A stretch of 64,000 nucleotides of DNA from the NCBI GenBank assembly GCA_043798985.1, contig JAZDOE010000001.1, positions 309-64,308 of the forward strand. Reading direction: 5' to 3'. Below the pieces are notes generated by a model. The model was not told the origin of the DNA. It did not search any database and saw only the letters and a program-made list of their open reading frames with translations. This document shows positions 15,721 to 60,016 of the stretch, piece after piece. How positions within the stretch are numbered: the first letter of the stretch is position 1; each line of letters opens with the position of its first letter. The stretch comes from Candidatus Falkowbacteria bacterium (GTDB lineage: Bacteria; Patescibacteriota; Patescibacteriia; UBA11705; JACRDX01). The translations under genes were made by a program, and so were the position numbers.

Positions 15721-15869
15721 ATGTTTGTTTAATTATTATATCAACGCCTGTAATTTAGCGCAAATTTTGGTGTTGACAAATCGGGAGCGATTTGATAATC
15801 TGTGGGCATTAGGGGGAGCCTATCATGGTGGTGGGAGATCCTTAACAACTTAAGCAACGGAGGCCTGTT

Positions 15870-16673
15870 ATGGGAAGCCTGCTGAAAGAGCTGCCATCCT
15901 CTGAACTGGTGGCAACGATTGAAGAGTTTGGACGATTGGGGGTGACGCATGCGGATCTGAAGATTTTCAGATCTCTATGCGAGGAAGAGAAGAAAAGCAT
16001 CATAGCAACGTTTCGCTCTTTTGGCTCATTGCCAAATTTGCAAGGATTTGTGCTCGAGCCGTATAAGAGGACGACTGCTCAAGTGAAATTGCGCGAGATC
16101 ATGGGCAAGAACATGTTCGGAATAGAAGACGCGCTGATGCATTTTGATGCATGGGCAACCAGTGGGCAAATCGCGGCATTGGACGAGATACCATACTCTA
16201 AAAATGTGTTGAGAGAGTGCAAAGAAACGCATGTCTTGATAGCAGATTTTGGTTTGTCTATCAGAGACATGTGGAAAATGCACAGACGATTGTTTCGCTA
16301 TCGGGACAAGATGCCAGATGCGCCAAGCGAGTTTCTGGAAAAACGCGCGGCTCCTCAATGGCGTTTGATTGCCAAATACGCGAAGATAGACATCTGTAAC
16401 GCCGAGGATGGAGATACGCTTGCGACGCTTGGCAACGATGAAGAAATGCCAATAGCGCGAGAGTTGGTGTACGCGGCAATCGGGATGCGGCTCGCTCGCG
16501 GAGAGATTCTGTTTCATGATGTTAGAATCAGAACAGATGAAGGGCGGCGGTTTGAAGGTTGGTACATGCATATTGGTCCGCATGATGAAGAGTATGGGCT
16601 TGGTATTTTTTACGGCGGACTCATGCATGGTAGTGTTGGTAGTGGAATTGTGGGTCGCAGAAAGTTGTGTTGA
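15870..16673 (+). CDS. Hypothetical protein, high-GC island 'A', paralog of the 40488..41306 product
   Basis: About 55% GC with GC3-rich codons in a low-GC genome. It has its own TTGACA-18-GATAAT promoter (15775-15806) and SD (AACGGAGGcctgttATG). Several protein segments align with island 'B' (e.g. DEEMPIARELVYAAIGMRLARGEILF vs DERVPNAAEVAWGVIAYKAVRNVFLL). Confidence 0.6.
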   Translation: MGSLLKELPSSELVATIEEFGRLGVTHADLKIFRSLCEEEKKSIIATFRSFGSLPNLQGFVLEPYKRTTAQVKLREIMGKNMFGIEDALMHFDAWATSGQIAALDEIPYSKNVLRECKETHVLIADFGLSIRDMWKMHRRLFRYRDKMPDAPSEFLEKRAAPQWRLIAKYAKIDICNAEDGDTLATLGNDEEMPIARELVYAAIGMRLARGEILFHDVRIRTDEGRRFEGWYMHIGPHDEEYGLGIFYGGLMHGSVGSGIVGRRKLC

Positions 16674-16676
16674 ACG

Positions 16677-17114
16677 TTGAAATTCACTGGCAAACAATGG
16701 AGGAAGGCCATGAGAAGAGTGATGAAGTGGGAGATTCCTGCCTATGGAGCGTTGCTGTTGATAACGTTGGCGTTGATTGCGTGGACGTACTTGCCAAAGT
16801 CAACCGACGCAAAACCGTACCCGATCAATGATTCTGCTGTCAAAGCGGAAGAACACGTAAGATCGCCGTTCGCGTTTTCCGAGAGTCTTTACGAGGCGCT
16901 TAAAGAGAATGACGCGCTTCGCGAGGAGCTGGAAGTGTACAAGGCGCTGGAAGCCGAGTGGGCGGCGCAGGTTTTGACCCAGCTGCCGTGTCCAACATGT
17001 CCTGGCCATGTGGAAATCCTTTCTTCCGCAACGCCGCAGTGGTCAATGCCGCTCGAGTTGTTGGCGCTTTATTACTCCGGCGCAAACGGCGGAGGAGGAG
17101 TAAGCGTGAAATAG
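16677..17114 (+). CDS. Hypothetical N-terminally membrane-anchored protein, co-transcribed with island 'A'
   Basis: 145 aa. Starts 3 nt after the stop of gene A. One TM segment (AYGALLLITLALIAWTY), a CPTCP motif and a Gly-rich C-terminus. High GC. Confidence 0.5.
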   Translation: MKFTGKQWRKAMRRVMKWEIPAYGALLLITLALIAWTYLPKSTDAKPYPINDSAVKAEEHVRSPFAFSESLYEALKENDALREELEVYKALEAEWAAQVLTQLPCPTCPGHVEILSSATPQWSMPLELLALYYSGANGGGGVSVK

Positions 17115-17186
17115 GATAGGCTACACCGCTCAGCAAAGCTGGGCGGCGATTTTTTTGCAAAAAAAAACGAGCGTCGTTGTGGGTGT

Positions 17187-17297
17187 TGTCATTTCGACCC
17201 CACAACGCCCGCTTCGCCGAGGCGAGTGGGGGAGAAATCCCTTGTGAAATGCATTTGCGAAGGGATTCCTCACCCTTTGCAAGGGTTCGGAATGACA
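17187..17297 (-). mobile_element. MITE/RPE-like hairpin repeat, full-length copy R1 (111 bp), minus orientation, intergenic between island A/H and rny
   Basis: Terminal inverted repeats tgtcatttcgacccc ... ggttcggaatgaca. The internal core gggggagaaatcccttgt(g/a)aa is shared with copies at 42447, 44175 and 49030. The element is itself flanked by an 8-bp inverted repeat (gagcgtcg / cgacgctc). Confidence 0.8.
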
Positions 17298-17329
17298 GGC
17301 GGCCTCACCGACGCTCTGTTTTGTAATTT

Positions 17330-18850: not shown

Positions 18851-19162
18851 ATTCTTTGGCCAGCTGGAAAAACGTTTGAATTGTTTGCGTCTACAACAAA
18901 AAACTTATTTACTGATTTTAGCGGTATTTTGTGAAAGCACGTCTTGGTTGTTGTATATATTCAAATTCATGCGATTACTGAAATTTGTTGAATTTCGCAA
19001 ATCTAACGTTTTCTTGCTTGCCGTTTATTTTTAAACTATTCATATTATACAGCATCTGAAAATAAAAAGCAAATGCAGGGTTAATGTTGACATTTTGAAA
19101 TAAATGAAATAAACTAAGTAGCAGAATGTTGGATGGCCACTTTTACAACGAGGAGGTGTGCA

Positions 19163-19606
19163 ATGAATGAGGGATGCAGGCCGGCGCATGAAGTGATCGT
19201 GCATCATCTGGAAGCTCAAGTTGATTTTGTCCATCGCAGTCTGGTGACGGAAACGCTGGACATCGCGTTCAGCCGATACGCGCAGGTGCACGCTCTGTTG
19301 TTCGTCTTGGAGGAGATGGTCATTCCAGAGCAAGCGGTTAGCCGCGTGATTTCTGCGTTGCATGGTATTTCGGAGCGTTTCAAAGAGATGCTGCCAATGG
19401 CCGGAGCGTTTCACGCGCGGATGGACAAGGCAGTTGAGATTCTGGTGGCGCGCAAGAAGCGCAGCGAGCAGCCGGGCGGATCGTCGAATGCTGACAAGCC
19501 ATTGTCTGCAGCAGAGAAGAAGATGGTGGGGGGTGTAGTTGATGAGGCGCTGCGCCTTGCCGATGAGTGCGAGGTCGTTGCTGAGAAGTTGAGAAAGAAA
19601 AGATGA
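19163..19606 (+). CDS. Hypothetical protein, high-GC island 'C'
   Basis: About 58% GC. TTGACA-18-TAAACT promoter (19087-19116), SD GAGGAGGTGTGCA-ATG, followed by a terminator. The ORF track calls 19133, but the ATG 30 nt downstream has the proper RBS spacing. Confidence 0.55.
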   Translation: MNEGCRPAHEVIVHHLEAQVDFVHRSLVTETLDIAFSRYAQVHALLFVLEEMVIPEQAVSRVISALHGISERFKEMLPMAGAFHARMDKAVEILVARKKRSEQPGGSSNADKPLSAAEKKMVGGVVDEALRLADECEVVAEKLRKKR

Positions 19607-19617
19607 TGAGTGATCTT

Positions 19618-19650
19618 TCGGGGCGCTCGCAAAGCGATCGCCCCCTTTTT
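19618..19650 (+). terminator. Rho-independent terminator after island C (cggggcgctcgc-aaa-gcgatcgccccc-TTTTTTT)
   Basis: 11-bp stem with one mismatch, followed by T7. Confidence 0.75.
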
Positions 19651-19674
19651 TTACGCCAGCATTTTTGCTAAGAT

Positions 19675-20853: not shown

Positions 20854-22049
20854 AAATTTGCATAATAACAAATTTATACCAGCCGCATAGTCGCGGCGGC
20901 GCGGAATTGATTGCCAAAACAATGGCAAACGGTTTTGTCAGCGCTGGTGATTCAGTTGTTGTTATTTCAACAAAACCAACGCGCGGTTTATCCGTGGATC
21001 AGGCGAGCGGGCGCATGCGAATTTATCGTTTCCTGCCGCTGAATATTTTTTATTATTTAAATGATTATAAACACAGCGCGCCAATCCGGTTGCTGTGGCA
21101 TTTTTTTGACATGTTCAATTGGCACAGCGCCAAAGTTGTCGCCGGAATTTTGAAAAATGAAAAACCTGATTTAGTCGTCACACACAATTTAAAAGGCATT
21201 GGTTTGTTAATACCGCGCGTAATCGCGCGGCTGAAATTAAAGCATGTTCATGTTTTGCACGATGTTCAGCTTGTTGTTCCATCTGGTCTGATTTTGAAAA
21301 ATCACGAGCAAGATTTTTCCATTGTCGGCTGGCCGACAAGAGTTTACGCTGGGATTTGTCGCTGGTTGTTTGGCAAAGTTAGTTTTGTCGTTTCGCCATC
21401 AAAATGGTTGCTTGATTTTTATGTTAGAAATGGATTTTTCAAAAACAGCCAGCAACAAACTATTCGCAATCCTGTGGTTGGCGTAGAGACGAGACATGTC
21501 TCGTCTCTGCAAAAGACCAATCAATTTTTGTTTGTTGGGCAAATTGAAAAGCACAAAGGCATTGATTGGTTAGTAAATTTTTGGAGGAAAAAGAATATTG
21601 CTGACGAATTGTTGATCGTTGGCCATGGATCGTTGAAGCATGGCTACGAAACTGCAAATCAGGACGAATGTTACAAATCTGCGAATATTAAGTTTTTTGG
21701 AAAAAAGACGAGGGAAGAGTTGGAAGAAATGTACCGGCCAGCTGACTTTTTAATCGCACCGTCATTATGTTATGAAAACTCTCCGACGGTGATTCAATCA
21801 GCGTTCCAAAACGGGGTGCCGGTGATTGTCGCTGATATTGGCGGCGCGGCAGAATTGGTTGAAAATAAAAAAACAGGATTTATTTTTCCTGCTGGCAACG
21901 AAGACGCGTTGATTAAAATCTTGGAAAATATCAAGTTGCTCGCGGACAAGGATTATCAAAAAATGTCAGAGCAATGTTTGGAAAAGTCGCGAGATTGGGA
22001 TGTTGAAAGATATATCGTAGCTTGTAGGAAGATAGCTGGTAGCTTGTAG
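20850..22049 (+). CDS. Glycosyltransferase family 1 (GT4), carrying an in-frame palindromic insertion (VETRHVSSLQ)
   Basis: N-terminal RGGAE glycine loop and C-terminal E.SPTVIQSAFQNGVPVIVADIGG motif. It overlaps the previous GT gene by 4 nt. Confidence 0.85.
   Translation: MKICIITNLYQPHSRGGAELIAKTMANGFVSAGDSVVVISTKPTRGLSVDQASGRMRIYRFLPLNIFYYLNDYKHSAPIRLLWHFFDMFNWHSAKVVAGILKNEKPDLVVTHNLKGIGLLIPRVIARLKLKHVHVLHDVQLVVPSGLILKNHEQDFSIVGWPTRVYAGICRWLFGKVSFVVSPSKWLLDFYVRNGFFKNSQQQTIRNPVVGVETRHVSSLQKTNQFLFVGQIEKHKGIDWLVNFWRKKNIADELLIVGHGSLKHGYETANQDECYKSANIKFFGKKTREELEEMYRPADFLIAPSLCYENSPTVIQSAFQNGVPVIVADIGGAAELVENKKTGFIFPAGNEDALIKILENIKLLADKDYQKMSEQCLEKSRDWDVERYIVACRKIAGSL
21485..21508. repeat. Perfect 24-bp palindrome agagacgagacatgtctcgtctct inside the GT CDS, in-frame. 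Member of the GTAGAGACG family.
   Basis: Its reverse complement is identical. It encodes ETRHVSS on both strands. Same sequence family as the copies at 7987, 40347 and 44742. Confidence 0.8.
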
Positions 22050-23440: not shown

Positions 23441-23953
23441 ATGGATTTTTCTTTAATAATAATAATTTGTCTTTTTGTATATCTGTGTATTTTTTTAAGA
23501 CTAATTTTGGTTAAGTTTAATAATACTCTTAATAAAAAAAGTGAATTGGAAAACGATAAAGATTCCTTTTATCCTGTGTTTAGCCGAGCAGAAATTAAAC
23601 AGCAGCTTTTTGATATTGAAATTAAGAAATTTAAAAAATCAAAAAAAGGTGATGAATATGACAAGCTACTTTCCGAGGAGAAAGAAAAAAATATTTTTCC
23701 GAGCGATAACATTAAGTATTTAATACGAGATTATTCTGAAGATGTTATTGAATACGAATTTTCCGAAAATAGATTAAACAAAATGTTGCAGGCAAATATA
23801 GACGTGCTAAATGGGAGTAAAAAAATTAATGAAGTTGACAAAGATAAAGTTTTGTGTGACATAATAGAAATGTTTGATAAAATTAAGCAAGGCAAGCTTA
23901 GATATGAAGAATGGTTAGAGCGAATACAAAGTAAAAAAGAGCCAAAGAAATAG
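23441..23953 (+). CDS. Hypothetical membrane-anchored Lys/Glu-rich protein in an AT-rich island
   Basis: 170 aa with an N-terminal TM (LIIIICLFVYLCIFL). The region is about 25% GC, far below the surroundings. Confidence 0.4.
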   Translation: MDFSLIIIICLFVYLCIFLRLILVKFNNTLNKKSELENDKDSFYPVFSRAEIKQQLFDIEIKKFKKSKKGDEYDKLLSEEKEKNIFPSDNIKYLIRDYSEDVIEYEFSENRLNKMLQANIDVLNGSKKINEVDKDKVLCDIIEMFDKIKQGKLRYEEWLERIQSKKEPKK

Positions 23954-24015
23954 CGCAACGTGGATAGTATTAATGGTAATTTAAGTAAAATTTCTGAGGG
24001 AAGTTTATAAAAATT

Positions 24016-24231
24016 ATGGCTAGAATAAATTTTGATTCAGTCTTTGAGCGAAGGGCTGACGGCACGTTAATTCCTCGTCAAAGGATACGCGTAGGGGGAA
24101 TTGAGTTGGGGCTAGGTGTTGTTTTTCGTCGGGGGGTCGCCTTTGGAGGCATAGATTTTACGCAATTTATAGGTCGCGAGCTTGATGTAGAGACAGACGG
24201 TGATATTTTGGTTATCAAAGGGATTTATTAA
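24016..24231 (+). CDS. Hypothetical small protein (71 aa)
   Basis: ORF with a Gly/Arg-rich beta-like sequence. It is GC-richer than the neighbouring AT-rich genes. No family recognised. Confidence 0.35.
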   Translation: MARINFDSVFERRADGTLIPRQRIRVGGIELGLGVVFRRGVAFGGIDFTQFIGRELDVETDGDILVIKGIY

Positions 24232-24235
24232 GTTT

Positions 24236-24529
24236 ATGGGTAAGAACGAAAAACCACAAATTATCATACCTGATCCAATCCATGAAGCGATAAATAGAAT
24301 TAATAAAGCAATATGGGCTATCGTTAGTATTTTGATCCTTGGTTTTATAACGATGCTTTTAATGGTAGCGGGTCTCGTTTTAGATGCATGGCGATTTAAA
24401 AGTAATTCCTATGAGGGTTTGATAGAGACGATACGGACGCAAGAAGAGATTATTAATAATAATAAAATTCAACAAGCCGAGGTGAAAAGTATTTTAGAAA
24501 ATATACAAAAGAAGTTACCGAAAAAATAA
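24236..24529 (+). CDS. Hypothetical small membrane protein
   Basis: One TM helix (AIVSILILGFITMLLMVAGLVL) and a Lys-rich C-terminus. Start is probably MGKNEKPQ, since the ORF-track start at 24200 overlaps the previous gene. Confidence 0.4.
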   Translation: MGKNEKPQIIIPDPIHEAINRINKAIWAIVSILILGFITMLLMVAGLVLDAWRFKSNSYEGLIETIRTQEEIINNNKIQQAEVKSILENIQKKLPKK

Positions 24530-29292: not shown

Positions 29293-29505
29293 AGTTTTGT
29301 TTTGTAAATCTAATCATCATAAACCATCTGTTTTAAAAGGTCAAAATGAAAATATTGCACTGTTGACATACGTTGCCGTGCGTGATAATATTTTGATGTT
29401 CATTAACAATAGCCAGAGATTGGAATGTCCTTGCGCAGATTGCGAAGGAATGGCCAAGCTTGGCAGTATGCTGGCAAAATTGTCAGCAAAAAACGGAGGG
29501 GTGTC

Positions 29506-30684
29506 ATGGCTGATGGCGATGGGAAGGCAGTAAAATGCAATAGCTGTGTTGATGATTTGCGCAAATTGTTTCAGTCGCAACAAGTGTCGCGACAGGACAA
29601 AGTCTGTTTCGTGGTCGGATTGCTGCTGATGTGCGTGGTAACAACTTTGTTATGGCGCGGCAGTGGTTTGGTGGAGACGTTGTGTTGGTTTGGGGTGTTG
29701 TGCGTTGCCTGCGGGGGATGTTTGCCTGCTTGTTTCCATGTCTGGGATGCGCGTATCATCGGGATTGTGCTATATGTTGGAAGAGGCAAGGATGGGGAGA
29801 TTCATGTACACAAGACCATGCCGCAACAGCTTGGCGAGCACTACTTTTGGTCTGCCAATGTAGATGCTAAAGAGCTTGGTGATCAGCATGTTTTTGCGCC
29901 GGTGTTTAAGCTGCGACTTGGGAGTGTGTTTAACAGCAGCATCGTTGTTGGTGGGTTTCAGAAAAATGATCCGTGCGCTGTTGGATTGGGTAGGGCATGG
30001 TTGTGGTGGCATGGGTCGTCAATTGACGTGGAAATGTCTTACGGCGGGCAGGGCAGCAAGGTTGTTTTAGGTGCGTTGAGAGTTGAACGGGCGTTTAAGT
30101 TGTATGATTATTTGGTGCAACAACGACCCGGTTCAATTGGGTGGTGCATAGGTGAGCTTCGCGACACGCTTCTTGAGGTAGTAGAACAATGTACAAATCA
30201 TGAAGCAATCGCGAAAAATGCGTTGTGCAAGTTGACCAGATGCAAGCAAGCGCTTGCAAAATGTGCTGTGCAGAGAAACGCATTGATGCTTCGCGTTCAG
30301 CGCATTGTCATGTTGCTTGCGGCAAGCAAGGCGATTGAAAAGTCGCATACTTCTGCCGCGGCGCGGCAAATGCTTGAAAACGCGCTGGTGTTGGTCATTG
30401 GTAATGAACTCTCTGGCGTTGGAAACTACAATCAAGATATGTTTCCCGGCAGAGAGAAAGACACTGATTTGAATACTGCTGTGGACAATCTGCTTCGCGG
30501 AATGATGCAATATCCAGAAGTTTTCAAACGCATTCCGGGAGAGACGAGCATAGACAGCGTTGTTGACGCGCTTGCTCGTGTCATCGCGGAGCAAGAGTAC
30601 GAGTTTCAGAGAACGATCATGGTGCGGATTGATAAGGGCACTGGCACAGAGAAAATGGATTTGGGTACAGGAAACAAGCCATAG
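29506..30684 (+). CDS. Hypothetical membrane protein, high-GC island 'D' (Cys-rich two-TM N-terminal region plus a soluble domain)
   Basis: TTGACA promoter at 29373, -10 GATAAT at 29394, SD AACGGAGGGGTGTC-ATG at 29506. GC is above 50%. The ORF-track start at 29425 lies upstream of the SD. Confidence 0.55.
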   Translation: MADGDGKAVKCNSCVDDLRKLFQSQQVSRQDKVCFVVGLLLMCVVTTLLWRGSGLVETLCWFGVLCVACGGCLPACFHVWDARIIGIVLYVGRGKDGEIHVHKTMPQQLGEHYFWSANVDAKELGDQHVFAPVFKLRLGSVFNSSIVVGGFQKNDPCAVGLGRAWLWWHGSSIDVEMSYGGQGSKVVLGALRVERAFKLYDYLVQQRPGSIGWCIGELRDTLLEVVEQCTNHEAIAKNALCKLTRCKQALAKCAVQRNALMLRVQRIVMLLAASKAIEKSHTSAAARQMLENALVLVIGNELSGVGNYNQDMFPGREKDTDLNTAVDNLLRGMMQYPEVFKRIPGETSIDSVVDALARVIAEQEYEFQRTIMVRIDKGTGTEKMDLGTGNKP

Positions 30685-30693
30685 CGCGTTGCG

Positions 30694-30726
30694 CGGCGTT
30701 CAAAATGAACGCCGCGGTTTATTTTA
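30694..30726 (+). terminator. Rho-independent terminator after island D (gcggcgttc-aaaa-gaacgccgc-ggTTTATTTT)
   Basis: Perfect 9-bp stem followed by a T-rich tail. Confidence 0.75.
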
Positions 30727-40346: not shown

Positions 40347-40371
40347 AGAGACGAGGCATTGCCTCGTCTCT
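40347..40371. repeat. Perfect 25-bp palindrome agagacgaggcattgcctcgtctct. GTAGAGACG family, downstream of ftsH and upstream of island B.
   Basis: Reverse complement is identical apart from the central base. An adjacent hairpin cccgcc-atcgag-gcggg lies immediately upstream. Confidence 0.8.
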
Positions 40372-40487
40372 TGGGTTTGCGCGACGGTTGACAAAAAGTA
40401 AGGTCTGATGTAAGATGATTTTGCTGTGGTAAAACCATTTGGTTCAGACCCGCCAGCGTTTAGTTCTTTCAAAGAGGAGCAACTACC

Positions 40488-41306
40488 ATGAGTAGAACAA
40501 CCTCGCAGGACTCGGGTTTCCCGGGATGGTATGTCACGTTTCAGACCGCTGCGTTGAATCAACTGCCGCGTCCGCCAGAGCTGGATCAGGTGACAGCAGA
40601 AGGGTGGATCAAGAACCAAGGCGCGCTGAAAAAGGTGCTTGCCGAAGATTTGCTGCCGCCAACGCTGAAGAAGACGATGGCGGAGCGGGTGGGGGGCGAG
40701 CTGGCAAGTGAAATTCTGGGCAAGGATTTCATCAACGCGGCAGAGATTGAGGCGGCGTTTAGGATGAAGTACGAGGCAGAACAGCTGGCAATGCTGGAAG
40801 ATTCGATGCCGTCGGAAGAAGTCCTGCGGTGGATGGCGGCAAACGAGTACATGCTCGTGGCGAAGCCACCGACAGAAATGTCGTTGCTGGATGTTCGGGC
40901 GGAGAAGCGTGAGCTGTTTTACAGCAAGACCGATGACGGATGGTATTGCAAGCAGGAGCAGACGTTTGCGCGCGATGACAAGACCAGCGCAGGGTGGCTT
41001 GCACTGCGCAAGACAATAGTGCCGAATTCGCAGAGCAAGACATGGGAAGAGCAGCAGAAGCTGCTGACCAAGGACGAGAGAGTGCCGAACGCGGCAGAGG
41101 TAGCGTGGGGAGTGATTGCGTACAAGGCGGTGAGAAACGTGTTTCTCTTGCCCACGATGTACGCGCGGACAAGTTCCGTGTCTGCCCTTGGTTTTCATGT
41201 GGATGTCGGTGGTTTTGTTGTTGCCGGCTTAGATGTCTGCGTCTGGTTTGACTGTTACGTTGGTCGCCTCGGCTTGGCGGGCGCGCGCCTGCCTACCGTC
41301 AGGTAG
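40488..41306 (+). CDS. Hypothetical protein, high-GC island 'B', paralog of the 15870..16673 product
   Basis: About 58% GC. Own TTGACA-17-TAAGAT promoter (40389-40417). Alignable with island A over several segments. Gly-rich hydrophobic C-terminus. Confidence 0.6.
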   Translation: MSRTTSQDSGFPGWYVTFQTAALNQLPRPPELDQVTAEGWIKNQGALKKVLAEDLLPPTLKKTMAERVGGELASEILGKDFINAAEIEAAFRMKYEAEQLAMLEDSMPSEEVLRWMAANEYMLVAKPPTEMSLLDVRAEKRELFYSKTDDGWYCKQEQTFARDDKTSAGWLALRKTIVPNSQSKTWEEQQKLLTKDERVPNAAEVAWGVIAYKAVRNVFLLPTMYARTSSVSALGFHVDVGGFVVAGLDVCVWFDCYVGRLGLAGARLPTVR

Positions 41307-41422
41307 GGAAGTTCTAGTTTCTACTTGACTTTTTGAGTTTTTTGATGCTTTGTGGGTATTCGCAACGCGGATACTCCTTTTTTTTGATTTTGTGGTATAA
41401 TAAAACAAACTAAAAAACAAAT

Positions 41423-44741: not shown

Positions 44742-44769
44742 GTAGAGACGAGATATATCTCGTCTCTAC
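44742..44769. repeat. Perfect 28-bp palindrome gtagagacgagatatatctcgtctctac (GTAGAGACG family)
   Basis: Reverse complement is identical. Intergenic, about 50 bp upstream of the methyltransferase start and about 140 bp upstream of the island E promoter. Confidence 0.85.
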
Positions 44770-44868: not shown

Positions 44869-44990
44869 CATCAAAATGGCTAAATTTGGCTGGTTTTAAG
44901 GCAAGGCTATTGACTTTTTCGCCAAGAGGGTGTATAATGTAATTATTGAAGTGATCGTTGAAGCAGTTTAACTCATAGCGGAGGTGTGTC

Positions 44991-45455
44991 ATGGAGCAGA
45001 ACTACAACGACGAGATGGGACTGGACAAGGCGCTCGGATGCAAGCCGTCGAAGAACCACCGTGTGCTGGATCGGATCGCGAAGATCGTCGGCGCGCTGAT
45101 GTTGGCCGGAATCGTGTTGTTCCTCGGACTGACGGCGTTGCAGCTGGTTCGCGTGTACAACCTCAACGAGGACTCGATGGAGCTGACGCAGAGAGTGGAC
45201 GAGTTCACCAAGTGCGGCGAGTACGAGTCGTACAACAAGTGCATGGATCGGGCGATCGCGCGGAATCCGCAGAAGGCGAAGCGGATGTTCGCCAGCGTGC
45301 AGGATTTACTTGACCGGAGAGCCGAAGGCTTCTTCTGGCCGGCGAACGCGGACTACCAGGGAGCAAACGGCTGGCCAGTGACGAGCCTCCGCGTCAATCG
45401 GGAGCAGTTGAGTGCGTCGCTGGACAAGTGGCGCACTCAACCCGGCAACCTGTAG
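44991..45455 (+). CDS. Hypothetical single-pass membrane protein, high-GC island 'E'
   Basis: About 60% GC with strongly GC3-biased codons. Promoter is TTGACT-17-TATAAT (44912-44940). SD CGGAGGTGTGTC-ATG. One TM helix (IVGALMLAGIVLFLGLTAL). Confidence 0.6.
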   Translation: MEQNYNDEMGLDKALGCKPSKNHRVLDRIAKIVGALMLAGIVLFLGLTALQLVRVYNLNEDSMELTQRVDEFTKCGEYESYNKCMDRAIARNPQKAKRMFASVQDLLDRRAEGFFWPANADYQGANGWPVTSLRVNREQLSASLDKWRTQPGNL

Positions 45456-45537
45456 GCGAGCAGTCTCGCAACGAGCGTGGCGACATGGGCGTTCAGAATC
45501 TTGAGCGCCCTGTTTTTTTTGCTACGAATGGCGGCTA

Positions 45538-45645: not shown

Positions 45646-46458
45646 GTGTGCGTCGTTATTTTAGAAATTAATTTTATTTTTATGGTTTCGTTTGAAGATC
45701 CAACATTGCAGTCAACAGGTGAAGCTAAATCCGTTCAAGACGAACAAAAGGGAAAAAAAGATGCGATTATTTCTCCGGAACGAGCGCTTGAAGAGTCGCG
45801 CGCATTTTATCAACGGCATAATTTTGCCGCGCTTTTGGACAAGATTCCCGAGAGCATTATTCTTTCTGATGAGGCCAGGAAAAAGATTGAGGAGGCGCAG
45901 AAGCAGGGGTTTGATCGTATGATGATTATGCCGGATATTGCGACGCAGAATGAGCAGACCAAAGAGATTGTAACTGGTTTGGTTACCGACAAACCGAGCT
46001 ATTATAATGCGCTAGATCAGCATAGTCGTGATTCTGAGAATTGGCATCAGCATTTACCCAAAAATCGTCCAGAGGGGAAACCTTATATGTTTCTTTATAA
46101 ATCCACAGGCGTAGAGCCAGAAACATTAGGCAAAACGCATCCTGAAGCGGAAGCATATTTGAAAGAGCATGGTTGGACAGGGCTTGCTTTGCAGGAGGCT
46201 TATTTGATTATGTATAAGGATAGAGAGGATAACCCAACTGCTTTTGCTAACAGGCTCGTGGAGTATGGCGAGAAATACGGTAGTTATTTGCTCGATGAGA
46301 GCGGGTATAGCCAGAAGTATATGACTGCGTGGTCTAAATTGGCGCCAGATCCCGATACTGGCGAGCGCGCACATGAATATCAATGGTCCAATTCTTTTGG
46401 TGGAAACAGAAGAGATGACCACGTCGGGACAAAAGCGTCAATAGTTATTGAATTATAG
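45646..46458 (+). CDS. Hypothetical soluble protein, island 'F'. Start is uncertain: GTG at 45646 (with an upstream GGAGG) or ATG at 45682.
   Basis: 270/258-aa ORF between the two promoter-containing direct repeats. It ends with a terminator hairpin (atcacgtga...tcgcgtgatTTTTTT, about 46471-46506). Confidence 0.5.
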   Translation: MCVVILEINFIFMVSFEDPTLQSTGEAKSVQDEQKGKKDAIISPERALEESRAFYQRHNFAALLDKIPESIILSDEARKKIEEAQKQGFDRMMIMPDIATQNEQTKEIVTGLVTDKPSYYNALDQHSRDSENWHQHLPKNRPEGKPYMFLYKSTGVEPETLGKTHPEAEAYLKEHGWTGLALQEAYLIMYKDREDNPTAFANRLVEYGEKYGSYLLDESGYSQKYMTAWSKLAPDPDTGERAHEYQWSNSFGGNRRDDHVGTKASIVIEL

Positions 46459-46554: not shown

Positions 46555-46559
46555 GACAT

Positions 46560-48563
46560 ATGAATGTTTCAGAATTGGCTAGAAAATTAAGAACAACCAC
46601 AGATGAGCTTTTGGCAAAATTACCAGAGCTTGGTTTTGATATTGGTAAACGCGCGATTAAAGTTGATGACCGCGTTGCGAGTCGCATTGTTCAGGCGTGG
46701 AACAGCTATAAAATTCAGGAAGCGCAAAAGCAGGATTATCTGCGCGCCAAAGAACATCAGGCCGCTACCCGCGAGGGCGCGCAATTGAGCGGCGAAAAAG
46801 TTCAGATTCCGGCTGTTTTGAGTGTGCGCGAGCTTGCGGAAATTTTGAAAACGCCGGTTTCGCAGGTAATTGGGACATTAATGAAAAACGGCGTGATCGC
46901 GTCATTGAATCAGAAGATTGATTATGAGACAGCCGCGATTGTCGCCGAAGAAATGGGCTTTCCTGCTGAACAAACAACAGCTAATGCCGATGATCAGGTT
47001 TTTGTTAGTCAGATTGAAAAAATGGATAAAGTTTTAGCGGCCGATACTGGCAAGTTATCTCGGCCGCCGATAGTCGTTGTGATGGGACATGTTGATCATG
47101 GTAAAACAAAATTATTGGACGCGATTAGAAAAACGCACGTGATGGAAGGCGAAGCTGGCGGAATTACGCAGCACATTGGAGCATACCAAGTTGTTTGGAA
47201 AGATAAAAATAAGAATGAGCAGAAGATCAGCTTTATTGACACCCCGGGTCACGAGGCTTTTACTGCAATGCGGTCGCGCGGCGCTGAAGTTGCTGACATT
47301 GCGATTTTGGTTATCGCGGCCGACGATGGTGTTATGCCGCAGACTATTGAAGCAATTAAAATTGCGGAGGCCGCGAAATTGCCGATTATTGTCGCGATAA
47401 ACAAAATTGACAAACCAGGCGCTGATCCTGAAAAAATCAAGCGTGAATTGTCGCAGCAAAATTTAATCAGCGAAGACTGGGGCGGCAAAACAATAATGAT
47501 TCCAATCTCAGCAAAGCAAAATCAAAATATTGACGCTGTGCTGGACGCGATTTTGTTGGTTGCCGGGATGGAAGTAGCAACAATACAAGCCAATCCTGAT
47601 GGTAAAATAATGGCTTGTGTAATTGAGTCGCACATTGATAAGAATTCTGGTCCTGTTGCGACATTGCTGGTAAAAAATGGAACATTGCGAGTCGCTGATA
47701 TTTTGCATATAGATGGCGTTTTCGTTGGCAAAGTAAAAACACTGAAAGATTGGTTGGGCAAGGAGCTGAAAGAAGTCGAACCATCATGTCCAGCGCAGAT
47801 TTTGGGATTTAAAATCGCGCCAAAAGTTGGCGACATTGTTGAAGTTGCCGCTGAAATGGGAGACGTCACACGCGTGAAATTTAGAAAATCGGAAAAGCAA
47901 GAATCAGCCGGAGTTGATGAATCCAGTCAGACCGAAGACAAAGAAGGGGTGACAAAAGTGAATTTAATTTTGCGAGCCGACGTGCTTGGTTCGCTTGAAG
48001 CTATTGTTGAATCCCTGAAAAAATTAGAGCGTGAGGATTTGAAAATAAAAATTGTTAAGCAAGGGTTGGGAAATTTAACGGAAAATGACGTGGCATTGGC
48101 AGAGGCGAGCAAAGCGATTGTTTTTGGTTTTAATGTGCGATTCGGCAGAGGCGTTGAAGAGGCGTTAAAAGCCAAGAATATTACGGTTAAGCTTCACCGC
48201 ATCATTTACGATTTAATTGATGATGTTAAAGAAAAGATAAATGAGTTGGTAAAACCTGAAACTGTTCGTTTGGATTTGGGCAAGGTTGAAGTTTTGGTAA
48301 TATTTAAAAAGACAGCCGGGCAAATGGTAATTGGCGGCAAGGTTGTTGACGGCGAAATTGTGCAAGGCGCTAAAGCGGCTGTGTTGCGGCAGGGTAATTT
48401 TATCACAACCGGCGACATTGAAAAATTACAAGCAGCCAAACAAGACGTGACAAATTGCGTGCGCGGACAAGAGTGCGGAGTGCAATTCAGAGGTCAGCCA
48501 TTGATTGAAAAAGGTGATATTTTAGAGGTTTTTCGCGAAGAAGCCAAGAAACATGGGATATAA
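46560..48563 (+). CDS. infB: Translation initiation factor IF-2
   Basis: G domain (VMGHVDHGKTKLLD, DTPGHEAF, NKID) plus the C-terminal beta-barrels. 667 aa. Confidence 0.95.
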   Translation: MNVSELARKLRTTTDELLAKLPELGFDIGKRAIKVDDRVASRIVQAWNSYKIQEAQKQDYLRAKEHQAATREGAQLSGEKVQIPAVLSVRELAEILKTPVSQVIGTLMKNGVIASLNQKIDYETAAIVAEEMGFPAEQTTANADDQVFVSQIEKMDKVLAADTGKLSRPPIVVVMGHVDHGKTKLLDAIRKTHVMEGEAGGITQHIGAYQVVWKDKNKNEQKISFIDTPGHEAFTAMRSRGAEVADIAILVIAADDGVMPQTIEAIKIAEAAKLPIIVAINKIDKPGADPEKIKRELSQQNLISEDWGGKTIMIPISAKQNQNIDAVLDAILLVAGMEVATIQANPDGKIMACVIESHIDKNSGPVATLLVKNGTLRVADILHIDGVFVGKVKTLKDWLGKELKEVEPSCPAQILGFKIAPKVGDIVEVAAEMGDVTRVKFRKSEKQESAGVDESSQTEDKEGVTKVNLILRADVLGSLEAIVESLKKLEREDLKIKIVKQGLGNLTENDVALAEASKAIVFGFNVRFGRGVEEALKAKNITVKLHRIIYDLIDDVKEKINELVKPETVRLDLGKVEVLVIFKKTAGQMVIGGKVVDGEIVQGAKAAVLRQGNFITTGDIEKLQAAKQDVTNCVRGQECGVQFRGQPLIEKGDILEVFREEAKKHGI

Positions 48564-48946: not shown

Positions 48947-51466
48947 ATGCAAAAATATAACCATAAAAAGATAGAAAAGAAATGGCAGAAAGAGTGGGAA
49001 AAGAGTGGGATAAACGAGGCGAAGACATTTACAAGGGATTTCTCCCCCGTCAGGGACGGGGTCGAAATGACAACTGCGCATGCTGGAAAAGAACGACCCA
49101 AGTTTTATTGTTTAGTTGAGTTTCCATATCCGTCCGGAGATGGTTTGCATGTCGGACATGTGCGCTCATACACGGCCATGGACATTATTTCCCGCAAAAA
49201 GCGAATGCAGGGATTTAATGTTTTATATCCAATCGGTTGGGATGCTTTTGGTTTGCCGACTGAAAATTTTGCTATAAAAACAGGAAAACAACCAGCGCTC
49301 GTCACAAAGGAAAATGTAAAAGTTTTTAAAAAACAAATTCAATCACTTGGAATCAGTTTTGACTGGTCGCGCGAAATAAATACCACTGATCCTGAATATT
49401 ACAAATGGACGCAGTGGATTTTTTTGAAACTTTTTGAAAAAGGTTTGGCGTATAAAAAGAAAATGCCCATAAACTGGTGCCCAAAATGCAAAAGTGGATT
49501 GGCGAACGAGGAAGTTGTTGACGGAAAATGCGAGCGGTGCGGCGCGGAGACGACAACAAAGGAGCTTGAACAATGGATGTTGCGAATCACAAAATACGCG
49601 GACAGGTTGATTGAAGATTTGGAAACAGTTGATTATTTGGAAAAAATAAAAACCCAGCAAATAAATTGGATCGGGCGTAGTTATGGCGTCAATTTTAAAC
49701 ACAAGATAAAAGATTTGAACATTGAGTTTGAAGTTTTTGATTCAATTCCGCAAACGCATCAGGCGCAGACTTTTTTTATTATCGCGCCCGAACACCTATT
49801 GGTGCGTGAGTTGGTTAAGGGTACAAAAGAAGAATCCGCGGTCATGAAATTTGTTGATGAAATTGTAAAAAAGAAGCTCGCCAAGAAGTTTGATATTGAT
49901 AAGGACATGGAAGGTGTTTTCACTGGACGATGTGTTGAAAATTATTTGGGAACAGGCAGAGATTTGCCGATTTGGGTCGCAAGTTTTGCGTTGGTTGATT
50001 ATGGGACGGGCATTGTCGGTTGCAGTGCGCACGATGAGCGGGATTTTAAATTCGCGAAAAAATATAATATCCCATTAAAGCCGGTTTTGTTTCCAAAAGA
50101 TAAAGAATTGGCAGAAAAAGTTCGTGCCATGGAAATATTTTATCGCGAGTCGGACGGGATTTTGGAAGAGCCGGTGGAATTTAAAGGGCGACAATGGGAC
50201 GAGGCGAGGGAAGATATTGTTGATTGGATTGAAAAAAATAATTTGGGCAAACGGACAGTGCAATATAAATTGCGTGACTGGGTTTTTTCGCGGCAGCATT
50301 ATTGGGGAGAACCAATACCGTTAATTTTTTGTGAAAAGTGTGGCTGGGTAGCGGTTCCGGAAGATGAGTTGCCAGTTGAATTGCCAAAAGTGAAAAAATA
50401 CGAGCCAACTGAAACAGGCGAATCGCCATTGGCAGCAATTGAAAAATGGGTGAAAACAAAATGCCCAAAGTGCGGGAGTGTTGCGCGGCGTGAAACTGAC
50501 ACAATGCCAAATTGGGCAGGTAGCTCGTGGTATTACCTCGCATACTTGATTGGCAAAATGACCAAATCCCAATTCCCAATGACCAATTATGGAAAGGAAT
50601 TTAAATACTGGCTTCCGGTTGACTTGTATAATGGCGGCATGGAACACACGACTTTGCATTTATTGTATTCAAGATTTTGGCACAAATTTTTATATGACAT
50701 TGGCGCTGTGCCAACCAGCGAGCCATACCAGCGACGCATTTCGCACGGTATGATTCTCGCGCCAGACGGTCAAAAAATGTCAAAGTCGCGCGGTAATGTT
50801 ATAAATCCTGACAAAATTGTTGAAGAATTTGGCGCGGATGTTTTGAGAATTTACGAAATGTTTATGGGTCCGTACGATCAGGCTGTTGCGTGGGATTTGA
50901 ATGGCGTAAAGGGCGCGTCAAGATTTGTTGAGCGCGTTTATCATTTTAAAAATTTTACTGAAAAATGTGAGCCTGAAGTTGAAAATTTGTTGCACAAAAC
51001 AATTAAAAAAGTCAGCGAAGATATTGATGAGCGCAGATTTAACACGGCTGTTTCGGCAATGATGATTTTCGTGAATAAAATTTACGAAAAAGGTTGTTGC
51101 AAAGAATGTTTTAAAAAGTTTTTACTTTTGTTAAGTCCGTTTGCCCCGCATTTGGCAGAAGAGTTGTTTGTCGCACTTCCCCTCGACGAAGCTCGGGGCA
51201 GGCTCGCTCATGGTGACAAGTCATCAATATTTTTGAATGAATGGCCAACGTTTGACGTAACAAAAATCGTGGATAAAATGATTGAAGTTGTTATTCAAAT
51301 CAATGGAAAAGTAAGAGGACGATTGCAGGTTGCGGCAGATATTCAGGAAAAAGATATTTTAGAATTGGCGCTGACCGACGAGAAAATTAAAAGTCAAATT
51401 GAGGGGAAAAAAATAATTAAAACAATGTACGTTCCGAAGAAAATAGTGAGCATTGTTGTTAAGTAA
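48947..51466 (+). CDS. leuS: Leucine--tRNA ligase, carrying an in-frame MITE-encoded insertion near the N-terminus
   Basis: HVGH (HIGH-class) motif in PYPSGDGLHVGHVRSY and KMSKS (QKMSKSRGN). 839 aa. About 15 extra residues (FTRDFSPVRDGVEMT) occur between the conserved N-terminal helix and the KFYCL strand. Confidence 0.95.
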   Translation: MQKYNHKKIEKKWQKEWEKSGINEAKTFTRDFSPVRDGVEMTTAHAGKERPKFYCLVEFPYPSGDGLHVGHVRSYTAMDIISRKKRMQGFNVLYPIGWDAFGLPTENFAIKTGKQPALVTKENVKVFKKQIQSLGISFDWSREINTTDPEYYKWTQWIFLKLFEKGLAYKKKMPINWCPKCKSGLANEEVVDGKCERCGAETTTKELEQWMLRITKYADRLIEDLETVDYLEKIKTQQINWIGRSYGVNFKHKIKDLNIEFEVFDSIPQTHQAQTFFIIAPEHLLVRELVKGTKEESAVMKFVDEIVKKKLAKKFDIDKDMEGVFTGRCVENYLGTGRDLPIWVASFALVDYGTGIVGCSAHDERDFKFAKKYNIPLKPVLFPKDKELAEKVRAMEIFYRESDGILEEPVEFKGRQWDEAREDIVDWIEKNNLGKRTVQYKLRDWVFSRQHYWGEPIPLIFCEKCGWVAVPEDELPVELPKVKKYEPTETGESPLAAIEKWVKTKCPKCGSVARRETDTMPNWAGSSWYYLAYLIGKMTKSQFPMTNYGKEFKYWLPVDLYNGGMEHTTLHLLYSRFWHKFLYDIGAVPTSEPYQRRISHGMILAPDGQKMSKSRGNVINPDKIVEEFGADVLRIYEMFMGPYDQAVAWDLNGVKGASRFVERVYHFKNFTEKCEPEVENLLHKTIKKVSEDIDERRFNTAVSAMMIFVNKIYEKGCCKECFKKFLLLLSPFAPHLAEELFVALPLDEARGRLAHGDKSSIFLNEWPTFDVTKIVDKMIEVVIQINGKVRGRLQVAADIQEKDILELALTDEKIKSQIEGKKIIKTMYVPKKIVSIVVK
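49030..49072 (+). mobile_element. Short (43-bp) copy R4 of the MITE/RPE-like family, inserted in-frame in leuS
   Basis: tacaagggatttctcccccgtcagggacggggtcgaaatgaca, which translates in the leuS frame as TRDFSPVRDGVEMT. Confidence 0.8.
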
Positions 51467-58148: not shown

Positions 58149-58172
58149 AGATTGGGTGCTGGTAACTGGTAA

Positions 58173-58556
58173 TTAGTAACTGGGGTTATTGTTGTTTATT
58201 GAGTTTATTAATCCATTAATTAGCCGTGCGGATTCTTCGCATTGCGCGGACAGTTTTTGGAGCGTTGGTTGATCTATGTATCTTAACGCTTCTGATAAAA
58301 ATAAAAAGCTTTGGACTTCAGCTGCCGATGCTCTAGCCATATAATAAAATTTGATTTTGTCCTTGAAATGAAATCGTGCGAATCCTTCGGCAATATTTGC
58401 CATTATTGAAGCTGATGCTCGCCGCAATTGGTTTGTTATTCCAAAAAGTTCCTCTTTGGGGAAAGTTTTTGTTATATTGTAAATTTGCAGTGTCAGGTCG
58501 CGCGCTTTTTGCCATGCTTCCAACTCGTAAAAATTTTTGATTTTTTTGTTTTCCAT
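58173..58556 (-). CDS. Four-helix-bundle protein (23S rRNA intervening-sequence protein family, TIGR02436)
   Basis: 127 aa with the YELEAWQKARDL...QLRRASASIMANIAEG pattern diagnostic of this family. It is flanked by GTAACTAGTAAC-type repeat motifs. Confidence 0.8.
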   Translation of the reverse strand: MENKKIKNFYELEAWQKARDLTLQIYNITKTFPKEELFGITNQLRRASASIMANIAEGFARFHFKDKIKFYYMARASAAEVQSFLFLSEALRYIDQPTLQKLSAQCEESARLINGLINSINNNNPSY

Positions 58557-58618
58557 AATATTACCAATTCCCAGTTACCAGTTCCTAGTTCCCAGCCCTA
58601 GTTACCGGTTACTAGTTA

Positions 58619-59356
58619 CTAGCCCCCATCCCCAGTGTTATCCCACACCATCTGCCAAATAGATTTCAGCGTCTTTGCGATTGCAGGATCTTCAATGATG
58701 ACCGCGGCATAAGGTTTACGGAACGAAATTAGCGAAACTTTATTGCTGTAAATGTTGATTTCGGTCTCAAAATCAATATTCGCGACAAGGCGCGTTTCGC
58801 GCAGTTGTTCTTTGTCTTTTGATTGAACAATTCGTCCCATTTTTCCATCTTTTGCGATGCAATAGAAGTGAGCGTTGTTTTTTACTCGCGTTTCCGCGGT
58901 CGGCCAGAGAAAGTCGGCCGGCAACGCCTCAAACATTTTTTCATAATCGCTGAACCCGTAAATCGGCTGGTTTGGCTGAGAATAATCGTTATATACCTGT
59001 TTTAATCCATCGAGTCCCTGATAGAATTTAACTTTTGGTTTTTTTGTTGGACGATTGAAAATGCTCAAAATTTCAGGCAAGGATTTTTTCACTTCATCAA
59101 TTCGTTGTTGCGTTCGTTTAACGACCGTTTCCGGATTTTCCGCGACCAATAAAAGTTTTTTTCCCTCTTTAACTTCGGTGACAAGTCCGAGATTTTTTAA
59201 TTCTTCGAGAAAATTATAAATGCTTGTGCGTTTAACTTTTGATTTTTGCGCCAACTCCTGAATTGTTGCGGAACCCAACTCAAGACAGGCGAGATATACT
59301 TTCGCTTGTTTTTCTTGTATTCCTAAATTTTGCAAAATCTTTAAGAGTGTCGCCAT
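58619..59356 (-). CDS. TrmB-family transcriptional regulator (winged HTH)
   Basis: LGIQEKQAKVYLACLELGSATIQELAQKSKVKRTSIYNFLEELKNLGLV. Paralog of 51469..52230. Confidence 0.75.
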   Translation of the reverse strand: MATLLKILQNLGIQEKQAKVYLACLELGSATIQELAQKSKVKRTSIYNFLEELKNLGLVTEVKEGKKLLLVAENPETVVKRTQQRIDEVKKSLPEILSIFNRPTKKPKVKFYQGLDGLKQVYNDYSQPNQPIYGFSDYEKMFEALPADFLWPTAETRVKNNAHFYCIAKDGKMGRIVQSKDKEQLRETRLVANIDFETEINIYSNKVSLISFRKPYAAVIIEDPAIAKTLKSIWQMVWDNTGDGG

Positions 59357-59584
59357 ATTAACCCCAGTTACTAGTTACCAGTCCCTATCATAATCTGTCT
59401 ATCTTTTAGACATTGTATCATATAAAAAATAAAGTGTCAAATTTGGCTAAATATGCATAAAATAATCGTTGGGCTTGCAATATGATAATTTGCTCTAGTC
59501 TAAATTATTGACAAAATAATTCTTCTCTGATAAAATGGTTTGTTCGGGAAAAGTGATCTTTGAAAATTAACAAAGGAGAAAGAC

Positions 59585-60016
59585 ATGGGAGCAGAAGGAG
59601 GACTTGTGGCGGCAGTGGCTGGTTTGGTGGCCGGTTCTTCGTGTGACGATGATGAAGCTGGCAGCGGTATGTCGGGAGAGTGGTCGGTGGACGAAGGCGA
59701 AGGATTTCTCAGCACAAAGTATTTTTTTAGACGTTTTGCCGAGGAAGATAGAAAGTGGATGGAGGCCGACCGGCAGCGTATAGCGAACGCGAGACATGAG
59801 GAATGGCTTGAGGAACTTTGTAACCGGCATCCCTTGGGAGGCTCAATAGTCGCAATTCTTGAAATAACATTTATTTTACTGCTGTGCCTTATAATGATAG
59901 CTCCCTTTCTTGCCATGCTGTGGCTGTTATTGCAACCATTTCTAGAAGCGTTTGGAGTTGTTTCGGGTCAGTTTTCCTTTAAAGCACTCCTTAACTGGAT
60001 CAGGCCGCCTTGCTAG
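59585..60016 (+). CDS. Hypothetical tail-anchored membrane protein, high-GC island 'G'
   Basis: GC-rich N-terminus (GAEGGLVAAVAGLVAGSS, acidic stretch), a C-terminal TM (IVAILEITFILLLCLIMIAPFLAMLWLLL), and a TTGACA-17-GATAAA promoter at 59509. Confidence 0.5.
   Translation: MGAEGGLVAAVAGLVAGSSCDDDEAGSGMSGEWSVDEGEGFLSTKYFFRRFAEEDRKWMEADRQRIANARHEEWLEELCNRHPLGGSIVAILEITFILLLCLIMIAPFLAMLWLLLQPFLEAFGVVSGQFSFKALLNWIRPPC

Follow-up and report, generated by a model that had tools for sequence, protein, structure and literature searches.

The 64,000-nucleotide stretch of contig JAZDOE010000001.1 of a Candidatus Falkowbacteria bacterium analysed here (the window) carries a set of small accessory transcription units, called cassettes below, that lie among housekeeping genes and differ from them in composition and in translation signals. 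These units are probably old, individually inserted genes of foreign style, and not the outcome of a recent wave of acquisition from one donor. A and B, two of their products, add to a known kind of protein, the variable proteins of Patescibacteria diversity-generating retroelements (DGRs). The window encodes recA, efp, ssb, nusA, groEL, ychF, HU, ymdB, rny, gyrA, rbfA, rpoB/C, ftsH, infB and leuS, and this gene content together with a GC content of 42.2% fits a Patescibacteria chromosome. Database searches with A to H returned, as best hits, hypothetical proteins at 100% identity from a Candidatus Falkowbacteria metagenome-assembled genome, with locus tags between V1902_00050 and V1902_00270 on a contig of 72.8 kb. 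Native genes, of about 41% GC, have starts devoid of a Shine-Dalgarno (SD) sequence, with AT-rich or leaderless 5' ends. Among them lie at least eight self-contained accessory units, each consisting of a sigma70-like promoter, a leader of 40-110 nt, a strong GGAGG-type SD, one or two GC-enriched open reading frames (ORFs) and an intrinsic terminator (Table 1). The cassettes form a class by architecture and composition, and not a single protein family. An earlier note on the window had listed eight such ORFs (A to H) at seven loci and proposed that they came from one foreign source and might constitute a gene family; only A and B are homologous. The list was also incomplete, since a minus-strand unit of the same architecture at 7230-7871 had been overlooked.

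The 39 ordinary ORFs of the window have a mean GC content of 41.3% (sd 2.5) and a mean GC content at the third codon position (GC3) of 0.417 (sd 0.038). Against this background E (60.4% GC, GC3 0.86, z=7.6 and 11.5, respectively), B (57.0%, 0.69), C (55.4%, 0.64) and H (54.1%, 0.63) are strong outliers, with z values of 5-11. A (48.3%, GC3 0.51), D (49.3%, GC3 0.52) and G (49.3%) deviate moderately (z of about 3), and the GC3 of G, 0.47, is hardly above native. The GC3 values are thus graded from E through B, C, H, D, A and G down to the native 0.42. F, with 44.4% GC and a GC3 of 0.42 (z=1.2 and 0.2), is no outlier. Hence the 50-62% GC attributed previously to all eight ORFs applies to E, B, C and H, and neither to A, D and G (48-49%) nor to F. 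Strong outliers account for 4 of 55 genes in the window against 4 of 457 in 42 other Patescibacteria loci (p=0.006), so that their enrichment is real. All three codon positions of the cassettes are raised in GC, NNG and NNC codons are used as in genomes of 55-65% GC, and the periodicity of GC with codon position is strong, being clearest in E and B.

The SD separates the cassettes from the native genes more sharply than GC content does. The 25 nt upstream of every start codon were tabulated with curated starts. This table was taken instead of an automated test on longest-ORF starts, which finds too few SD sequences in the window, since C, D and H truly begin inside their longest ORFs. A 5-mer SD precedes 9 of 9 cassette starts, B and G included, and 1 of 42 other genes (p=3e-9), the only carrier among the latter being an S1-like gene. 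The cassette SD is of the GGAGG type, 5-9 nt from the start codon, whereas native genes have AT-rich, SD-less or leaderless 5' ends with a mean GC of 0.28 in the 20 upstream nt. Many native genes seem leaderless (46548-46562, 44693-44710 and others), and the -10 element of infB, TATCAT, ends 6 nt before the ATG. The earlier note had recognised a shared initiation context in several units and considered those of B and G unrelated; the context is confirmed and had been understated, as both carry an SD.

At about 100 other Patescibacteria loci SD-like motifs were found at a frequency of 8-12%, near the chance level. The GC-rich outlier genes of other Patescibacteria loci are enriched for a strong SD (4 of 38 against 7 of 462, p=0.006), and a further Patescibacteria comparison gave 8 of 26 against 15 of 202 (p=0.0015). 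The complete 16S rRNA of a relative whose rny is 66% identical ends in GGATCACCTCCTT and retains the CCUCC anti-SD, so that the anti-SD is available in this lineage. Flavobacterium and other Bacteroidota are likewise SD-poor; they retain an anti-SD that is seldom used, and their SD-led genes are a few native regulatory cases. The present genome resembles them in being SD-poor, in having few strong-SD genes and in the intact anti-SD of the relative's 16S rRNA, but it differs in that the SD-led genes are GC-rich accessory genes and orphans.

A scan for promoters, which accepts only spacers of 16-18 nt, returned TTGACA-like sites upstream of C, D, B, E, F and G, all with a 17-nt spacer and 10-11 matches out of 12; the site of A-H was missed. 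Promoters as good precede native genes (rpoB, 30858; infB, 46525; and, on the minus strand, 59440), and promoter-like sites in the window are about 1.3-1.5 times the shuffled expectation. The cassette promoters, described previously as near-consensus and private, are therefore not private, although the near-consensus sites before C, D, B, E, F and G stand. Terminators were detected by scan after H, D, B and E, and by eye after C and F. A clean rho-independent terminator had been claimed for each unit; that of G lies about 240-280 nt downstream of the stop codon. The hairpin common to D and E (GGCGTTCA..TGARCGCC) is also found 3' of the B homologues in the loci L106 and L107.

A and B were identified through their relationship to DGR target proteins. 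In DGRs a template repeat (TR) is copied by a reverse transcriptase (RT) that makes errors at adenines. The resulting cDNA replaces the last ~40 codons of a target gene, the variable region (VR), and thereby diversifies a ligand-binding surface. Homologues of B number 57, nearly all in Patescibacteria, and two B paralogues (74% and 68% identical) are located on another contig of the same metagenome-assembled genome (MAG). A and B are collinear at 20% identity, with A aligning over the whole domain, and they are distant paralogues. A is 40% identical to an A-type paralogue (6894-7679) in contig L002, which is a proven DGR target. L002 contains three tandem family members followed by a 122-nt repeat of their 3' ends (the TR), whose core differs from the three VRs at TR adenines, and further downstream by Avd (NCBIfam DivGenRetAVD, 1.3e-20) and the RT. 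The tandem targets, TR, Avd and RT make L002 a complete DGR. RT and Avd lie within 2 kb of the B homologue in 7 of 23 species-representative loci. An AlphaFold2 (AF2) model (pLDDT 79) supports a C-type-lectin fold at the C-terminus, as in known DGR targets.

The codon usage of both genes bears the imprint of such a system. NNT codons make up 0.40 of the last ~45 codons of B against 0.13 elsewhere (p=8e-5), and 0.48 of the 3' end of A against 0.21 elsewhere (p=3e-4). The VR of B contains 6% A, compared with 26% in the remaining gene. Codons that vary among B, L106 and L107 are NNT codons with the third base fixed, located between conserved nucleotide blocks, and this variation is the imprint of AAT-templated adenine mutagenesis. 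Such mutagenesis is expected to leave AAY-derived NNY codons that vary at positions 1 and 2, and the codon fractions of A and B agree with it. A and B, which the earlier note had not recognised as such, are DGR variable proteins.

Their closest known counterparts are the variable proteins with a C-type-lectin (CLec) fold, such as Bordetella phage Mtd, Treponema denticola TvpA and Thermus TaqVP, together with the Patescibacteria-restricted DGR clade (clade 2 of Roux et al. 2021, PMC8144416; the "CPR set" of Wu et al. 2018, PMC5758913). The A/B family shares with the CLec proteins the C-terminal fold, a VR in the last ~40 codons, AAY-derived NNY codons in this VR and GC-rich conserved blocks around it; its homologues adjoin TR, Avd and RT, and TR/VR mismatches are confined to adenines. 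Unlike these proteins, A and B have no sequence match to solved variable proteins or to Pfam/NCBIfam models, and a profile of the B family found nothing among PDB sequences. Most family members, A and B included, have no signal peptide, and both proteins are small (~270 aa), each having its own promoter and SD. The entire ORF, beyond the VR flanks, is ~20 GC points above the genome and its own RT/Avd. Finally, no RT or TR was found in the 64-kb window, where searches for an Avd-RT pair (tblastn with the L002 RT and Avd) were also negative. A and B are therefore remote targets of a DGR located elsewhere in the genome, or relics. The missing RT lowers the claim that they are active targets without excluding it, because remote targets are known (PMC5758913). 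A parallel is offered by Treponema, whose DGR has seven scattered remote targets (Wu et al. 2018, PMC5758913), in that the paralogues here are also dispersed away from an RT, A and B being 24 kb apart and two more lying on another contig. They differ in that the link of A and B to a TR is putative and in that the 3' end of A is different from that of B and more degenerate, so that A would need a second TR or may be a relic. We infer that A and B may currently be diversified in trans.

The GC signature of this family persists through deep divergence. Of 23 loci, 20 have a B homologue that is 4-23 GC points above its 12-kb flanks. The target has 60-63% GC in seven complete DGRs, compared with 37-50% for Avd/RT and 41-54% for the genomes. 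A GC3 of ~0.8 and the SD persist in A/B family members from hosts of 31-55% GC, and the identity between members is just 42-75%. Synonymous divergence (dS) is 1.0-1.4 between the tandem copies of L002. In the B lineage, at a dS of 0.8-1.8, GC3 stays at 0.61-0.70 against 0.36-0.44 in the neighbours. Four loci (L106-L109) display the same layout of GC, SD, promoter and terminator beside neighbours of 34-48% GC, and their A-type homologues (L108, L109) are GC-rich and SD-led, unlike the adjoining genes. The GC excess extends over the whole ORF, with a GC3 of ~0.8 in every third, and stops sharply at the ORF borders. An origin of the excess in a constraint of the DGR on the VR was rejected, as all thirds of the ORF are affected. 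The ~60% GC of DGR targets beside an AT-rich RT and Avd finds no mention in the DGR surveys PMC5758913, PMC8144416 and PMC11661182.

E provides independent evidence of age. A search of 5.8 billion clusters gave two hits and a single relative, which lies in the Logan contig L024, whose infB is 85% identical to that of the window in nucleotides and 95% in protein. The palindrome, promoter, SD and terminator of E are all kept in L024, and E is directly upstream of infB. Between E and this orthologue dN/dS is 0.35 and dS 0.53, GC3 is 0.86 in both, and the dS of infB is 0.62. E is thus no recent arrival, as it occupies the same place in a relative at a dS of 0.53 with unchanged GC3. From the persistence across the A/B family and in the E orthologue it follows that high GC is a long-lived, gene-linked property and not the scar of a fresh transfer. 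These recurrences also bear on the possibility that the GC-rich blocks are assembly chimeras or GC-rich non-coding RNAs (ncRNAs) that happen to contain ORFs. Structured RNAs can form GC-rich islands in AT-rich genomes, and the region 3' of G folds unusually well (z=-5.9). However, E with its flanks and B-type units recur in the independent assemblies L024, L106 and L107, and protein homologues exist for A, B, D and E. Moreover, codon-position periodicity of GC is strong, E evolves at the low dN/dS given above and the window has no Rfam match; cassettes as ncRNAs were rejected on the last two grounds. An artefact is largely refuted and very improbable.

F, counted as a cassette in the earlier note, is outside the class. 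Its GC content and GC3 and the lack of an SD at its ATG make it native-like in composition and start context. Copies of the infB promoter, forming a direct repeat of 32 bp at 97% identity, lie on both sides of F (45538-45569 and 46523-46554), and in L024 a single copy of this promoter separates E from infB, without F. The repeat and the F-less arrangement identify F as an indel at a duplicated infB promoter.

The insertion of A and H between ymdB and rny, normally adjacent, was confirmed: rny-ymdB-HU is contiguous in about 50 metagenome loci. The empty site holds at the clade level, the relatives compared having an rny at most 69% identical. In the same comparison E is present in one close relative. 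GC-rich inserts at the rny-ymdB junction of other genomes were considered and rejected, the few inserts found there being AT-rich and unrelated. In their atypical GC, lineage restriction, lack of recognisable domains and, for A+H, position between conserved neighbours, the units resemble genomic islets and ORFans. They depart from islets in being single-gene units with their own promoter and terminator, in a signature that outlasts saturated synonymous divergence and in the absence of mobility genes, tRNA anchors and target-site duplications, the 32-bp repeat at the non-GC-rich F being the exception. As the earlier note had stated, no integrase or transposase gene was seen among the window ORFs, which were inspected by eye, most of them without a family-library scan. 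The window has no tRNA gene, and no direct repeats flank A/H, C, D, B, E or G, so that the borders of a recent genomic island were not found.

The strongest competitor on origin is that one donor pool of higher GC and with SD use (host, phage or plasmid) supplied the cassettes on repeated, fairly recent occasions and that they are slowly ameliorating. It would account for the raised GC at all codon positions, the codons typical of genomes of 55-65% GC, the graded GC3 series, the SD on every unit of an otherwise SD-less genome and the broken rny-ymdB junction. Two contigs add to it. In L014, a 61% GC contig labelled Hyphomicrobium, a B-family gene (5887-6618) occupies an island bounded by an integrase. 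It has a 1152-aa tail-fibre-like protein on one side and a tyrosine integrase on the other, with genes typical of Alphaproteobacteria close by; the arrangement reflects either gene transfer out of Patescibacteria or chimeric binning. L002, from a MAG labelled Gammaproteobacteria, is prophage-like over 1-12624, with an XRE/ImmA pair, a ParB-methylase, a large terminase, a thermonuclease and a serine recombinase, all at ~41% GC. Nevertheless, a recent common donor is unlikely. The units have no protein family in common except A/B, and the GC-rich members of this family, at 42-75% identity, are nearly all from Patescibacteria while the RT and Avd of the same cassettes are not GC-rich. The unchanged GC3 of syntenic E and the stable GC3 of the B lineage speak against the single foreign source proposed earlier, as does the persistence of GC and SD in the A/B family through saturated synonymous divergence, and neither mobility genes nor tRNAs were noticed in the window. 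A phage source, also suggested earlier, fares no better: tblastn of B, E and C against phage records gave no match, and scans of IMG/VR gave nothing for D, C and H and a single contig for the B-family profile. What stands of the earlier proposal is the accessory, lineage-restricted character of the units and the foreign style of their composition and translation signals.

Several observations weigh against an old, long-lived signature and against the DGR assignment in its strong form. Three divergent family members (L018, L022 and L023) are not GC-rich and have native GC, so that neither the fold nor the function demands high GC. The graded GC3 series is as expected from ameliorating acquisitions of different ages. 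For E alone, neutral decay is compatible with the data: a two-state decay calibrated on infB implies an ancestral GC at fourfold-degenerate sites (GC4) of about 0.99, a weak estimate from 43 sites. G is the weakest member of the class, its GC3 being close to native. The VR of A is more degenerate than that of B and not depleted in A, and current diversification of A and B is unproven, as neither an RT, an Avd-RT pair nor a TR was found in the 64 kb. C, G, H and the ORFs at 7230-7871 are called orphans on the strength of family libraries, scans of phage and viral collections and clusters at 90% identity.

The GC content could be kept high by selection acting on mRNA or translation, by biased conversion between paralogues, or by ongoing exchange in a GC-rich gene pool. 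The first two enter a functional explanation, by which the GC-rich ORF, consensus promoter, strong SD and terminator would mark a specially expressed gene class, its GC3 kept high by selection or by biased gene conversion among paralogues. Such genes could be very highly expressed, have stable mRNAs or be served by a sub-population of ribosomes with a free anti-SD. A GC3 of ~0.8 across deep divergence and in hosts of 31-55% GC, with RT and Avd tracking the host, agrees with this explanation, as do the ORF-wide excess with sharp boundaries, the strong SD of GC-rich outliers in other Patescibacteria, the intact anti-SD of the relative and expression signals that are all near consensus. The three family members at native GC do not. 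Furthermore, groEL, HU, rpoB/C and efp, presumed to be highly expressed, are not GC3-rich, which makes ordinary translational codon selection unlikely, and the SD could simply offset a more structured GC-rich 5' end. The functional explanation as a whole is quite unlikely.

In a broader and tentative formulation, which is possible but doubtful, Patescibacteria that have abandoned the SD would keep, under selection, a class of accessory genes that are GC-rich, SD-led and self-contained and stay near 60% GC at any host GC, spanning both DGR-diversified lectin-fold proteins and small membrane orphans. If this were true, genes for interaction with hosts or phages would have a separate expression regime, through anti-SD-dependent translation, mRNA stabilisation or biased conversion. 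Under the reading preferred here, of old and individually inserted accessory genes, eight anonymous hypothetical proteins become testable, two of them as retroelement-diversified binding proteins. A and B are prime candidates for host or phage recognition in an episymbiotic groundwater bacterium with a tiny genome. GC excess combined with an SD in an SD-less genome offers a rule to find accessory, probably interaction-related genes in Patescibacteria MAGs. The ~60% GC of DGR targets beside an AT-rich RT and Avd, if general, calls for explanation. Both the SD-plus-GC class signature and this GC pinning of DGR targets are unexplained and merit a systematic survey.

Table 1. Features of the cassettes and of F in window coordinates.
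Feature	Position	Strand	Description
Extra unit	7230..7871	-	palindrome 7983-8010; promoter TTGACA-17-TAAGCT 7947-7919; two ORFs; terminator 7186-7222
Two SD-led CxxC ORFs	7542-7871, 7230-7535	-	in extra unit; 51% and 45% GC, respectively
A-H promoter-like site	15773..15799	+	TTGACA, 15-nt spacer, GATAAT; read from sequence, missed by scan
A (V1902_00100)	15870..16673	+	267 aa, 48.3% GC, SD GGAGG; A-type, C-type-lectin-fold DGR variable-protein superfamily
A variable-region-like 3' end	16533..16670	+	NNT enrichment; aligns with family VRs
H (V1902_00105)	16710..17114	+	134 aa, N-terminal transmembrane (TM) segment, 54% GC, SD GGAGG; co-transcribed with A
A-H intrinsic terminator	17126..17156	+	9-bp stem, 7 GC pairs, T run
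C promoter-like site	19087..19115	+	TTGACA-17-TAAACT
C (V1902_00115)	19163..19606	+	147 aa, no TM-like segment, 55% GC, SD GAGGAGG
C terminator hairpin	19620-19652		by eye
D promoter-like site	29363..29391	+	TTGACA-17-TAATAT with TG
D (V1902_00175)	29506..30684	+	392 aa from SD-led start, two TM-like segments, 49% GC
D terminator	30692..30726	+	hairpin type GGCGTTCA..TGAACGCC, common to D and E
REP-like palindrome	40347..40371		AGAGACG..CGTCTCT; upstream of B promoter
B promoter-like site	40388..40416	+	TTGACA-17-TAAGAT; same type before B homologue in L107
B (V1902_00195)	40488..41306	+	272 aa, 57% GC, GC3 0.69, SD GAGGAG; C-type-lectin-fold DGR variable protein
B variable region	41175..41290	+	NNT codons, A depletion
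B intrinsic terminator	41354..41386	+	scan
REP-like palindrome	44744..44767		upstream of E; kept upstream of E orthologue in L024
E promoter-like site	44910..44938	+	TTGACT-17-TATAAT; kept in L024
E (V1902_00215)	44991..45455	+	154 aa, one TM-like segment, 60% GC, GC3 0.86, SD GGAGGTG
E terminator	45487..45520	+	GGCGTTCA..TGAGCGCC type
F (V1902_00220)	45682..46458	+	258 aa; NCBI start ATG 45682, no SD; outside class
G promoter-like site	59508..59536	+	TTGACA-17-TAAAAT with TG
G (V1902_00270)	59585..60016	+	143 aa, C-terminal TM-like segments, 49% GC, GC3 0.47, SD AAGGAG

Scans of all cassette proteins against Pfam, PHROGs, NCBIfam and PADLOC yielded no usable match. The products had been described earlier as mostly membrane-anchored or secreted-looking; TM-like segments were found in H, D, E and G but in none of the other four ORFs listed. 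D and E are lineage-restricted near-orphans. D has one remote homologue among 1.84 billion representatives (P0067, 23% identity, collinear, pairwise E=2e-14), and its AF2 model, from a two-sequence alignment, has a pLDDT of 38.6 and is unusable for fold assignment. A homology between D and E was not accepted, the shared motif [FY]FW[PS]AN.D covering just 11 residues (E=0.03). No family, phage or viral match was obtained for C, and no Pfam, PHROG, NCBIfam or viral match for H; the limited searches run gave no homologue of either. Nothing in the family libraries or viral collections tried matches C, G, H or the ORFs at 7230-7871, all of which are singletons at 90% identity.

The non-coding parts of the units share further modules. 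The palindrome of GTAG...CTAC type (AGAGACG-N-CGTCTCT), which resembles repetitive extragenic palindromic (REP) elements, has three exact copies in the window (40347, 44744 and 21485) against 0 expected, and a copy with one mismatch (7983-8010) precedes the minus-strand unit. Three of these four copies are just upstream of cassette promoters, the other (21485-21508) being inside a glycosyltransferase ORF. In L024 the palindrome also precedes the orthologue of E, and in L107 it flanks the homologue of B. The REP-like GTAGAGACG..CGTCTCTAC family is restricted to close relatives, with copies in L024 (3-26), L107 (481-505 and 1317-1341) and L048 (1641). The common palindromes and terminators are suggestive of a shared cassette backbone but do not amount to evidence for a mechanism of mobility. 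Integron cassettes were considered and rejected: the units are dispersed, each with its own promoter-like site and terminator, no tyrosine-recombinase-like ORF was noticed by eye in the window, and the 24-28 nt GTAGAGACG palindromes are upstream of promoters and not after the ORFs, as attC sites would be. The motif AAAATNTAGGGTTGT occurs in four copies (0.3 expected; 7954-7968 on the minus strand, 30734-30748, 44798-44812 and 60827-60841), always intergenic and upstream of a promoter; at E and before the gene at 60919 it is part of a hairpin TAGGGT..ACCCTC. An inverted-repeat element (GTCATTTCGACC...GGTTCGGAATGAC) resembling miniature inverted-repeat transposable elements is located at 17150-17320, downstream of the A-H terminator, and fragments of it are present in other intergenic regions (42471-42529, 44171-44205 and 49026-49060).

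The GC-rich 280 nt between the stop codon of G and its terminator (60017-60295) fold at -112 kcal/mol (z=-5.9 relative to shuffled sequences) and have no Rfam match, as is the case for the whole window; they could be a structured 3' untranslated region, a small RNA or a repeat element. Beyond them, on the minus strand, two adjacent ORFs of 79 and 69 aa (60317-60556 and 60566-60775) resemble a toxin-antitoxin pair. A four-helix-bundle protein of family TIGR02436 (2.7e-36), weakly Avd-like (1e-5), is encoded on the minus strand at 58173-58556 between glycosyltransferase genes, without an adjoining RT. Lastly, the AT-rich island at 23441-24529 contains ORFs of 170 and 109 aa with 26.5% and 31.5% GC (z=-5.8 and -3.9), compositional outliers of sign opposite to that of the cassettes.

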